A stretch of 14,398 nucleotides of DNA, taken from the IMG/VR virus record IMGVR_UViG_2548876961_000004. One strand, written 5' to 3'. The stretch's first letter is position 1, and the number at the start of each line of letters is the position of its first letter. The notes beneath the pieces are model-generated. The model had not been told where the DNA came from, made no database searches, and worked only from the letters and a program-made list of their open reading frames with translations. A program made the translations under genes and the position numbers. Shown piece by piece: positions 1-1,414 of this stretch. Origin of the DNA: a virus. Lineage: Duplodnaviria; Heunggongvirae; Uroviricota; Caudoviricetes.

Positions 1-80
1 TGTTGGTACTGACTGATGGCGCTCTGGTCTGCGGCATTGTGGTATTGCTGTGGCCGATGATGAAAGAACAGAATGAATAA
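1..80 (+). CDS. 3' end of an upstream ORF (partial; hydrophobic C-terminus ...LVLTDGALVCGIVVLLWPMMKEQNE, stop TAA 78-80); product unknown
   Basis: Open frame from position 3 running to TAA at 78-80; hydrophobic stretch suggests a membrane segment. Only 26 codons are visible, so the call is weak. Confidence 0.3.
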   Translation, partial: LVLTDGALVCGIVVLLWPMMKEQNE

Positions 81-83
81 TTC

Positions 84-113
84 TTGACTTTTTTGTTTAC
101 TGTTTATTAAAAA
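84..113 (+). promoter_or_regulatory. Candidate late promoter (pR'-like): TTGACT at 84-89, A/T-rich -10-like hexamer 17-18 bp downstream (TTAAAA/TAAAAA at 107-113)
   Basis: Perfect -35 hexamer TTGACT (same as recalled lambda pR' -35), moderate -10 match, and a strong intrinsic terminator about 180 nt downstream, matching the lambda pR'-6S RNA-tR' layout upstream of the lysis genes. Confidence 0.35.
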
Positions 114-266
114 ATCAACCGCATGGTGAATCCTCCTTGGAGGGGCTAAATGATCGAGTTTTAAGGGCACGTAGCGAGTTCTGTTTGATCATTGCAGAAC
201 TTAGCGGGAGGCGCCATGCGTACATCACTAATGTTATTTCCTTCTATCATTTTCCTTGTGAGTTCT

Positions 267-293
267 GGCTGCGCATGGCGCGGCCTTTTTTTT
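267..293 (+). terminator. Rho-independent terminator (tR'-like): stem GGCTGCGC / GCGCGGCC, loop ATG, followed by T8
   Basis: 8-bp GC-rich stem (one G-U pair) at 267-274 and 278-285 followed directly by eight T residues at 286-293. Confidence 0.6.
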
Positions 294-482
294 ATGACCT
301 GCCACTGGCAGATGGTCATCCTGTGATTTGATTCCGGTTCCGGCTTTTTAACTCTGTTCCTGTACACGGGAGAAATTCTATGTCGATTAATCGTTATGAT
401 ATTGGTTACAAGAAGTACCACGTATTGTGTTGAGATAGAAAGCATGGTGCCAGAGGTAAATGCAGCAGCATAATAAAAAAGA

Positions 483-522
483 GCCAGCGCAGAAGAGAAC
501 GGGTAAAAGAGTCTGCGCTGGC
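483..522 (-). terminator. 11-bp perfect inverted repeat (GCCAGCGCAGA ... TCTGCGCTGGC) with 18-nt loop; on the minus strand it is followed by CTCTTTTTTATT, i.e. a minus-strand-oriented intrinsic-terminator-like hairpin
   Basis: Stem arms at 483-493 and 512-522; A-rich run 471-480 on the + strand becomes a U-tract 3' of the hairpin on the - strand. Confidence 0.3.
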
Positions 523-639
523 GTGGGGATATTCCCCGTGGAGAAATGATATGTAACACACATCGGGAACCTTTCTATATAAACATTATCATTATTGTCA
601 ATCATAACAGTCAGGTATTATGACGTTTATGCATCAGGG

Positions 640-666
640 CCATCAGGAATTAACTGGTGGCTTTTT
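640..666 (+). terminator. Terminator-like or attenuator hairpin (CCATCAG / CTGGTGG stem with one G-U pair, 7-nt loop) followed by CTTTTTATT, 35 nt upstream of the holin start
   Basis: Stem arms at 640-646 and 654-660, T5 run at 662-666. Confidence 0.3.
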
Positions 667-701
667 ATTGTTGTCAGCTTCCGGATAACGGGAGACGGGG
701 T

Positions 702-917
702 ATGTACCAGATGGAAAAAATAACAACAGGTGTGTCATACACCACGTCAGCGGTGGGGACGGGATACTGGCTACTGCAGTTGCTGGACAAAGTCTCCCCA
801 TCCCAGTGGGTGGCAATAGGCGTATTGGGTAGCTTGGTGTTTGGCTTGCTGACGTATCTGACAAACCTTTATTTCAAGATTAAAGAAGATAAGCGTAAGG
901 CTGCGAGAGGTGAATAA
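702..917 (+). CDS. S: Class II holin (pinholin), phage 21 S-like, with dual-start motif (Met1 at 702, Met4 at 711)
   Basis: 71-aa product [71 protein letters not shown] with two TM segments and a charged C-terminus, closely resembling the recalled S21 pinholin. GGAGACGGGG RBS upstream; stop TAA overlaps the next start (TAATG). Confidence 0.9.
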
Positions 918-1414
918 TGTCGCCATCATTACGCAAGGCTGTTGCTGCTGCTATTGGTGGTGGGGCTGCTGCCATAGCGTCTGTGCTCATCACTGGTCCG
1001 AGTGGTGACGATGGCCTGGAAGGTGTCAGCTACATACCATACGAAGATATCGTTGGCGTATGGACTGTATGTCACGGACACACCGGAAAAGACATCATTC
1101 CCGGTAAAACGTATACCGAAGCAGAATGCAAAGCCCTCCTGAATAAAGACCTTGCCACGGTCGCCAGACAAATTAACCCGTACATCAAAGTCGATATACC
1201 GGAAACAACGCGCGGCGCTCTTTACTCGTTCGTTTACAACGTGGGCGCTGGTAATTTCAGAACATCGACGCTTCTTCGCAAAATAAACCAGGGTGATATC
1301 AAAGGCGCATGTGATCAGCTACGGCGCTGGACATACGCTGGCGGTAAGCAATGGAAAGGGCTGATGACTCGCCGCGAGATTGAGCGTGAAGTCTGTTTGT
1401 GGGGGCAACAATGA
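917..1414 (+). CDS. R: SAR endolysin (phage 21 R-like lysozyme/muramidase with N-terminal signal-anchor-release domain)
   Basis: 165-aa product with Gly/Ala-rich weakly hydrophobic N-terminus ([23 protein letters not shown]) followed by a lysozyme-like catalytic region ([17 protein letters not shown]); start overlaps holin stop; stop overlaps Rz start (ATGA). Confidence 0.92.

Follow-up and report, generated by a model that had tools for sequence, protein, structure and literature searches.

The perfect inverted repeat at positions 483-522 of the window (the whole 14,398-nt stretch of Caudoviricetes DNA that was analysed) belongs, on the minus strand, to EcOnc32, a small RNA (sRNA) of prophage Sp3 catalogued by Tree et al. 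(2014; Mol Cell 55:199; PMC4104026). It is the same object as that catalogue entry, and the feature was already known. The published data show a minus-strand RNA of about 100 nt that is present in uninduced cultures, crosslinks to Hfq and forms hybrids with mRNAs in vivo. The explanation that accounts best for the hairpin and its adjoining U-tract, and one that we regard as very probable, is that they form the Rho-independent terminator and the 3' Hfq-binding, stabilizing module of EcOnc32 acting in trans. As a discovery this adds little: by 2014 the transcript and the strand it comes from, together with Hfq binding and the terminator, were in print. What the present analysis adds is an explicit link to the Esr41 family, an anatomy in window coordinates, an allele series and predictions of pairing with ECs0632/entC, ECs1655 and chuA. 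A reading made from the letters alone had thus correctly found the terminator of a real prophage sRNA, and the catalogue entry is now tied to Esr41, a studied regulator of virulence and iron.

Positions 300-720 of the window were 100% identical to positions 901405-901825 of the E. coli O157:H7 Sakai genome (NC_002695.2) within lambdoid prophage Sp3, and window positions were converted by subtracting 901105 from the Sakai position. To the left of the hairpin lies a plus-strand, STnc100-like leader (91-296; Rfam STnc100, 37.7 bits, E 2.3e-6), which, according to the terminator scan, ends at a strong terminator (267-285) followed by T8. To the right is a lysis cassette comprising a class II holin gene (703-917), an endolysin gene (917-1414) and then annotated endopeptidase and lipoprotein genes. 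The sequence-only reading had placed the hairpin between the leader terminator and the holin gene, and this placement stands, with terminator 267-285 and its T-run on the left and holin ORF 703-917 on the right.

The two arms of the hairpin (483-493, GCCAGCGCAGA; 512-522, TCTGCGCTGGC) were recovered by an inverted-repeat search as 11-nt segments with 100% complementarity separated by a loop of 18 nt; eight of the 11 base pairs are G-C, and the loop is rich in C and U (CUCUUUUACCCGUUCUCU). The plus-strand sequence aaaaaaga abuts the 5' side of the stem, so that the minus strand reads TC-TTTTTT-A-TT past the stem (TCTTTTTTATT in full). The 11-bp perfect stem, the preceding plus-strand A-run and the minus-strand T-run described in the sequence-only reading were all borne out by the search and the sequence. 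The isolated hairpin had a folding energy of -21.2 kcal/mol on the minus strand and -21.3 kcal/mol on the plus strand. Only the minus-strand version is terminator-like because the plus strand has no T-run after the stem; GTGGGGAT is found there instead.

Compared with what is expected of intrinsic terminators, the structure has a stable, G+C-rich stem-loop and a U-tract 3' of the stem on the transcribed strand (UC-UUUUUU-A-UU on the minus strand), but the loop of 18 nt is not short (typically 3-8 nt). The U-tract begins 2 nt past the stem, with a UC spacer followed by six Us. The hairpin resembles the canonical Rho-independent terminators of Hfq-dependent sRNAs in its G+C-rich stem, its U-tract and its position at the 3' end of an Hfq-bound RNA, and differs from them in an unusually long loop and, in the EcOnc32 allele, in the 2-nt UC spacer. 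A generic terminator scan did not report the 483-522 hairpin because the loop limit of the scan was 8 nt, which has no bearing on whether the structure is real. When the whole 14.4-kb window was shuffled 200 times with dinucleotides preserved, 13 of the shuffles (6.5%) contained a perfect inverted repeat whose stem was 11 bp or longer and whose loop was 3-25 nt. As a bare inverted repeat the hairpin is moderately unusual at most, and it is the context that gives it significance. The minus-strand RNA from 580 to 470 folded into three hairpins with an energy of -38.7 kcal/mol (z = -6.1), and none of 200 shuffles folded as well.

Table S2 of Tree et al. (2014, PMC4104026) places EcOnc32 at Sakai positions 901574-901662, minus strand, in prophage Sp3. 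The published interval corresponds to window positions 469-557 on the minus strand and includes the hairpin, the U-tail and the sequence upstream of the hairpin. The identification was checked by sequence because coordinates differ between genome versions: relative to the numbering of the 2014 study, Esr41 is shifted by about 169 nt towards higher positions in NC_002695.2. RNase E-CLASH reads assigned to EcOnc32 (Waters et al., 2016, PMC5286369, Table EV7) contain ACATATCATTTCTCCACGGGGAAT, which is exactly the minus strand of the window from 556 to 533. In the catalogue, the Hfq-CRAC peak of EcOnc32 passes in 5/5 datasets; its AUC of 64.7 million is exceeded, among the rows listed, only by that of EcOnc01a (77.8 million); and the entry is flagged with a predicted Rho-independent terminator and a Northern band of about 112 nt (Tree et al., 2014, Table S2, PMC4104026). 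In the same study, the table of intergenic Hfq reads has ECs0816..ECs0818 as its first row (PMC4104026). The Hfq-CRAC peak ends at window position 469, consistent with an RNA 3' end in the U-tract. The proposal of the sequence-only reading that the hairpin is an intrinsic terminator for a leftward transcript is thus backed by published Hfq-CRAC, Northern and CLASH data, and the short minus-strand transcript for which it advised a Northern blot is matched by the published band and the peak end. In Table S2, the Hfq-dependence column is blank for EcOnc32 and the entry lists neither a homologue nor a function (Tree et al., 2014, PMC4104026); a literature search found no papers that name EcOnc32 in the main text.

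The hairpin-bearing RNA and EcOnc32 of the 2014 study are identical, and EcOnc32 forms one half of a convergent sRNA pair at the moron site. Such pairs were reported for the moron sites, past PR', of Sp3, Sp4, Sp9, Sp10, Sp11, Sp15 and Sp17 (Tree et al., 2014, PMC4104026). The partner is EcOnc13, which Table S2 of that study places at 901332-901382 on the plus strand with a size of about 187 nt by Northern (PMC4104026) and which is the 3' part of the plus-strand leader. The leader was estimated at about 185 nt, from a promoter-like sequence (TTGACT-17-TTAAAA, 74-102) to the T-run at 286-293, in agreement with the Northern size of EcOnc13. HnrS (Poudyal et al., 2026) was considered as an identity for the hairpin-bearing RNA and rejected; HnrS corresponds to EcOnc10-12 in Sp9, Sp10 and Sp12 and is a different RNA.

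The features of EcOnc32 and of its convergent partner, from the EcOnc32 3' end rightward to its candidate promoters, are as follows.

472-482, minus strand: 3' tail UC-UUUUUU-A-UU, the termination U-tract and likely Hfq-binding 3' end (sequence; CRAC peak end at 469).
483-522, minus strand: terminator stem-loop of EcOnc32 (repeat search; fold of -21.2 kcal/mol; terminator flag in Tree et al., 2014; conserved basal 7 bp).
525-537, minus strand: small middle hairpin GGGGA-AUA-UCCCC (folds; aligns with the second helix of the Rfam Esr41 model).
538-553, minus strand: putative seed CAUAUCAUUUCUCCAC, anti-Shine-Dalgarno-like (CLASH hybrids; predicted duplexes; UUUCUCCAYGGGG common with Esr41).
548-564, minus strand: 5' hairpin GAUGUGU-GUU-ACAUAUC (folds; Rfam alignment; a G-U pair becomes A-U in variants).
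574-601, minus strand: candidate promoter P2, with -35 TTGACA (601-596), a 16-nt spacer and -10 TATAGA (579-574) (homologous, by alignment, to the promoter-like sequence upstream of Esr41).
585-614, minus strand: candidate promoter P1, with -35 CTGACT (614-609), an 18-nt spacer and -10 GATAAT (590-585) (promoter scan).
91-296, plus strand: EcOnc13/STnc100-like leader RNA, the convergent partner of EcOnc32 (Rfam; terminator scan; Tree et al., 2014, Table S2).

Part of the seed is taken up by the first hairpin as its 3' arm, and the rest is single-stranded. The search for a minus-strand promoter that the sequence-only reading had recommended returned the two candidates P2 (601-574) and P1 (614-585). 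The -10 hexamer of P1 was GATAAT, TATCAT or TATAAT across alleles. G564 of EcOnc32 is homologous to the first position of the Rfam Esr41 model. The transcript expected from P2 would be about 91-94 nt long and that from P1 about 104-107 nt, nearer to the Northern band of about 112 nt; the size expected from Esr41 homology (about 91 nt, G564 to about 474) and that seen by Northern (about 112 nt) do not match. The sequence-only reading had seen no minus-strand gene to the right of the hairpin, which holds for protein-coding genes, none of which is convincing, but a non-coding sRNA gene with its own candidate promoter (about 570-615) is present.

EcOnc32 is related to Esr41. The Rfam Esr41 model (RF02676) matched the minus strand from 562 to 473 over its full length with 32.3 bits and an E-value of 6e-4, below the gathering threshold of 102 bits, and the only large departure from the model was about 18 extra nt in the terminator loop. 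At gathering thresholds, Rfam gave no matches in the whole window, and the Esr41 link emerged at E-value thresholds only. The true Esr41, in SpLE1 (locus L002, 648-721), scored 108.6 bits. In the reverse direction, a covariance model (R1) built from six EcOnc32-type variants with Esr41 excluded matched Esr41 in Sakai SpLE1 (L002) with 32.6 bits and an E-value of 7.5e-6, and it matched Esr41-type copies in Shigella flexneri (L011) and another E. coli locus (L066) with 30.2 bits. When the Esr41 and EcOnc32 loci were aligned, similarity began at a common -35 TTGACA and continued through the GAUG start, a CAUUU(U)CUCCAYGGGG-AU-CCC core and a CGCCRGC...GCUGGC terminator.

Folds and model alignment gave EcOnc32 the three helices of Esr41 and placed a single-stranded, C/U-rich seed between the first and the second. 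The conserved UUUCUCCAYGGGG-AU-CCC seed and middle hairpin were also present, and a pattern scan recovered both EcOnc32-type and Esr41-type loci. When genome contigs were scanned with the pattern, 60 matches were obtained, mostly chance matches in unrelated taxa; the only real members were S. flexneri and E. coli loci of the Esr41 type. Esr41 is located in SpLE1 (O-island 43/48), whereas the EcOnc32 copy is in lambdoid prophage Sp3. By sequence and structural alignment, EcOnc32 is a diverged paralogue or family variant of Esr41 and not Esr41 itself; it is called a paralogue because its score falls below the Rfam gathering threshold and it lies outside SpLE1.

The likeness extends over the whole unit. 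In Esr41 (EcOnc14, RF02676) and EcOnc32 alike, the -35 TTGACA is equally far from the GAUG start, and the order of elements is a 5' hairpin, a C/U-rich seed, a small GGGG..CCC hairpin, a CGCCRGC..GCUGGC terminator and a U-tract. Both RNAs are Hfq-associated and both were captured with iron-related mRNAs (chuA, cirA and bfr for Esr41; ECs0632/entC for EcOnc32). They differ in the sequence of the 5' hairpin, in the length of the terminator loop (18 nt in EcOnc32 versus about 8 in Esr41), in the seed context (AUAUCAUUUCUCCAC in EcOnc32 versus CACAUUUUCUCCAU in Esr41) and in location, EcOnc32 being in a lambdoid late region and Esr41 in SpLE1. For Esr41, a review describes a GC-rich palindrome and poly(U) of this kind as essential for functional Hfq binding.

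AgvB and AsxR (RF02702 and RF02703) occupy the same slot in the same orientation as EcOnc32 and, like it, are short Hfq-bound sRNAs whose genes, in Sakai lambdoid prophages, are set between moron and lysis genes and converge on the late transcript. However, AgvB and AsxR are 51-60 nt long and sponge other sRNAs, whereas the EcOnc32 hybrids retrieved were with mRNA ribosome-binding sites. Neither family gave an Rfam match at E <= 1 in window positions 1-1200. Identity with AgvB or AsxR was rejected: sequence and structure similarity were lacking, the 3' region of about 42 nt of EcOnc01-03 was not matched, and only the genomic slot is common.

In the CLASH data (Waters et al., 2016, PMC5286369), EcOnc32 occurs in hybrids with the ribosome-binding regions of two mRNAs, ECs0632 and ECs1655, to which it had been ligated. 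Each target is represented by one to a few reads. The ECs0632 read includes a Fur-box-like sequence, GATAATCATTATT, and the start ATGGAT. We take ECs0632 to be entC, a gene of enterobactin synthesis; ECs1655, a small protein, is annotated by RefSeq as a general stress protein. The seed CAUAUCAUUUCUCCAC (553-538) was predicted to form an 18-bp duplex with the ECs0632/entC fragment, with one bulged sRNA nucleotide and an energy of -22.7 kcal/mol, and this predicted duplex spans the Shine-Dalgarno sequence and the AUG. With ECs1655, the same seed was predicted to form 14 contiguous base pairs (-27.2 kcal/mol). Predicted pairing with entC was stronger for EcOnc32 (-22.7) than for Esr41 (-16.2), that with chuA was similar (-22.3 versus -21.5), and that with bfr was much weaker (-12.1 versus -22.8).

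These observations suggest a working model. EcOnc32 (about 90-110 nt) would be transcribed leftward from its own sigma-70 promoter in the moron slot of Sp3; the hairpin and U-tract would halt RNA polymerase and leave a 3' stem with an oligo-U end for Hfq; and the seed, together with Hfq, would occlude mRNA ribosome-binding sites in trans, most likely repressing translation. The terminator would also keep leftward transcription out of the convergent leader and its terminator. In this model, we infer the promoter and 5' end of EcOnc32, termination at precisely this hairpin and the regulatory outcome on the targets. More tentatively, in view of the ECs0632/entC hybrid captured in vivo and of chuA pairing predicted to equal that of Esr41, EcOnc32 may be a functional second Esr41-type copy with a shifted, overlapping regulon centred on iron acquisition, and it may also act in cis on the lysis transcript, a combined proposal to which we give rather less than even weight. 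If it is true, deletions of esr41 alone under-report the effect of the family, and the state of the prophage is linked to the iron physiology of the host.

The position of the gene invites another explanation, in which EcOnc32 is chiefly cis-acting and pairs with or hinders the Q-antiterminated late (lysis) transcript, tuning holin and endolysin or the timing of lysis; the hairpin would still be a terminator. The sRNA gene lies inside the plus-strand late transcription unit, upstream of the holin ORF that starts at 703, and the RNA is fully complementary to the leader. In seven prophages of Sakai, the moron slot has conserved convergent sRNA pairs (Tree et al., 2014, PMC4104026), and the plus-strand complement of the seed reads GGAGAAAUGAUAUG, which resembles a ribosome-binding site. 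However, much EcOnc32 was bound to Hfq in cultures that had not been induced, a state in which late transcription presumably stops at the terminator, the hybrids recovered were with chromosomal mRNAs rather than with the late leader, and the homologue Esr41 acts in trans from SpLE1, outside any lysis operon. A mainly cis-acting RNA is therefore improbable. A cis-antisense role as such is possible and compatible with a role in trans, but is not favoured because EcOnc32 is abundant without induction and Esr41 works outside lysis operons. The antisense RNA opposite the lysis leader that the sequence-only reading had suggested is thus correct in its geometry, whereas Hfq binding, mRNA hybrids and Esr41 homology favour a trans-acting sRNA.

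The same inverted repeat could instead serve as a stabilizing or processing hairpin in the leader of the plus-strand late mRNA, with the minus-strand T-run incidental, an alternative that the first description of the hairpin had raised as a stabilizing structure. Although the hairpin is equally stable on that strand (-21.3 kcal/mol), minus-strand transcription is documented at the site (Tree et al., 2014, PMC4104026), the promoter-to-terminator unit homologous to Esr41 is in the minus orientation, and variants maintain or better the minus-strand U-tract. We found no support for the plus-strand alternative, which is superfluous and highly unlikely.

Equally hard to sustain is the proposal that RefSeq ECs_0817 (132 aa, window 559 to 161), a minus-strand CDS annotated in Sakai and, as a hypothetical protein, in many PGAP genomes, is a genuine protein gene that contains the hairpin. 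Its product had no Pfam match above threshold and no PHROG match, and its ORF would cross the EcOnc32 terminator, the plus-strand tR' and the leader. In variant V2, a 1-nt insertion in a stem arm would shift the ECs_0817 frame, and PGAP treats the counterparts as frameshifted or incomplete in locus L003 and as incomplete in locus L004. ECs_0817 is probably an annotation artefact. Both minus-strand ORFs that overlap the hairpin, of 132 aa and of 72 aa, were rejected as its explanation for lack of credible Pfam or PHROG support.

The published Hfq-CRAC, Northern and CLASH data in effect refute a functionless chance repeat, for which the frequency of such repeats in shuffled windows (6.5%) could be cited. 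The repeat also adjoins a U-tract, belongs to the three-hairpin fold (z = -6.1), shows conservation and lies where an RNA has been detected by experiment.

The 141-nt EcOnc32 unit was detected in 603 of 5,426 complete E. coli genomes (about 11%), always on the chromosome, and was at least 99% identical in 564 of the 603. The carriers were mostly O157:H7, O55:H7 and other STEC/EPEC-type strains. With carriage at about 11%, redundancy with Esr41 becomes a practical concern for the reading of esr41 mutants. The phage GenBank collection contained the element in one record, Escherichia phage Evi, and added little extra diversity; about 70 IMG/VR contigs also contained it.

Among seven distinct sequences, all seven base pairs at the foot of the terminator stem stay intact and 91% of the terminator-helix cells are paired. 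In two inner stem pairs both partners are replaced (C-G to U-A; A-U to U-A), and one allele has a G-C to G-U change plus a bulge in the terminator stem. The eighth stem pair is A-U in Esr41 and G-C in EcOnc32 (read by eye, as the column was left unaligned by MAFFT). The count of compensatory pairs (two pairs in seven closely related sequences) was matched by 268 of 500 shuffles. Covariation is consistent with the terminator structure but, with so few sequences, all of them close relatives, statistically thin; of the stem conservation with compensatory changes that the sequence-only reading had proposed as a check, the two-sided changes were found, but more than half of the shuffles equal their number. 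Loop length varies in the family (about 8 nt in Esr41, about 14 in V3, or 18-19 nt), and the long loop is therefore a feature of the lineage and not a requirement. Variants carry G-U7 straight after the stem, so that the minus-strand U-tract is kept or improved.

Some EcOnc32-type alleles lie 3' of, and antisense to, stx2B in Stx2 prophages (L004, 742-835; L005, 696-775), in what is the AsxR slot in Sp5. The L004 allele has an altered seed, CAUUUAUCCAC. The L005 copy, which is beside stx2i, no longer has the promoter or the 5' hairpin and resembles a remnant in decay.

Several other elements were noted around the sRNA pair. Right after gene Q in Sakai there is a further promoter-like site and a terminator-like hairpin (L001, 94-122 and 156-177; Sakai 899998-900081). 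Q is separated from the STnc100-like leader by ECs_0816, which is annotated as a membrane-protein gene, and an ORF unannotated in Sakai ends at window position 79. Given these features, either promoter-like site (that after Q or that at 74-102) could be the Q-dependent PR', and the leader at 91-296 may be the PR' leader or a separate sRNA gene (EcOnc13).

In the lysis cassette, the holin (703-917) has the N-terminus MYQMEK with two in-frame Met codons, and the endolysin is 165 aa long with a hydrophobic N-terminus. The lysis genes (703-1414) look to be of the phage 21 type. A plus-strand, terminator-like hairpin (636-664, with a tail to 673), which has 11 pairs and a 7-nt loop and is followed by TTTTTATTG, precedes the start of the holin gene (703) by about 35 nt. 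Many further E. coli genomes have the region from 633 to 720, conserved at about 94-95%, ahead of class II holin genes; with positions 300-720 as the query, 2,376 genomes matched some part and only 564 matched most of it. The 636-664 hairpin might be the 3' end of a PasA/PasC-type sRNA or a terminator for read-through by Q-modified polymerase. A 2026 preprint places a PasA/PasC-type sRNA directly beside the holin gene.

Past the lysis cassette, the plus strand has an intrinsic-terminator-like sequence at 2053-2076 (GCCTCGC-attc-GCGGGGC followed by T6), and a second perfect inverted repeat, of 10 bp with a 6-nt loop, is found at 2089-2114 (AAAGCCACTC/GAGTGGCTTT). Between the two convergent terminators, a plus-strand mini-ORF of 17 codons (380-433; MSINRYDIGYKKYHVLC) is preceded by a good Shine-Dalgarno sequence, GGGAGA, at 368-373. 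The Shine-Dalgarno region of this mini-ORF, GGAGAAAU, shows complementarity over 8 nt to the seed of EcOnc32.
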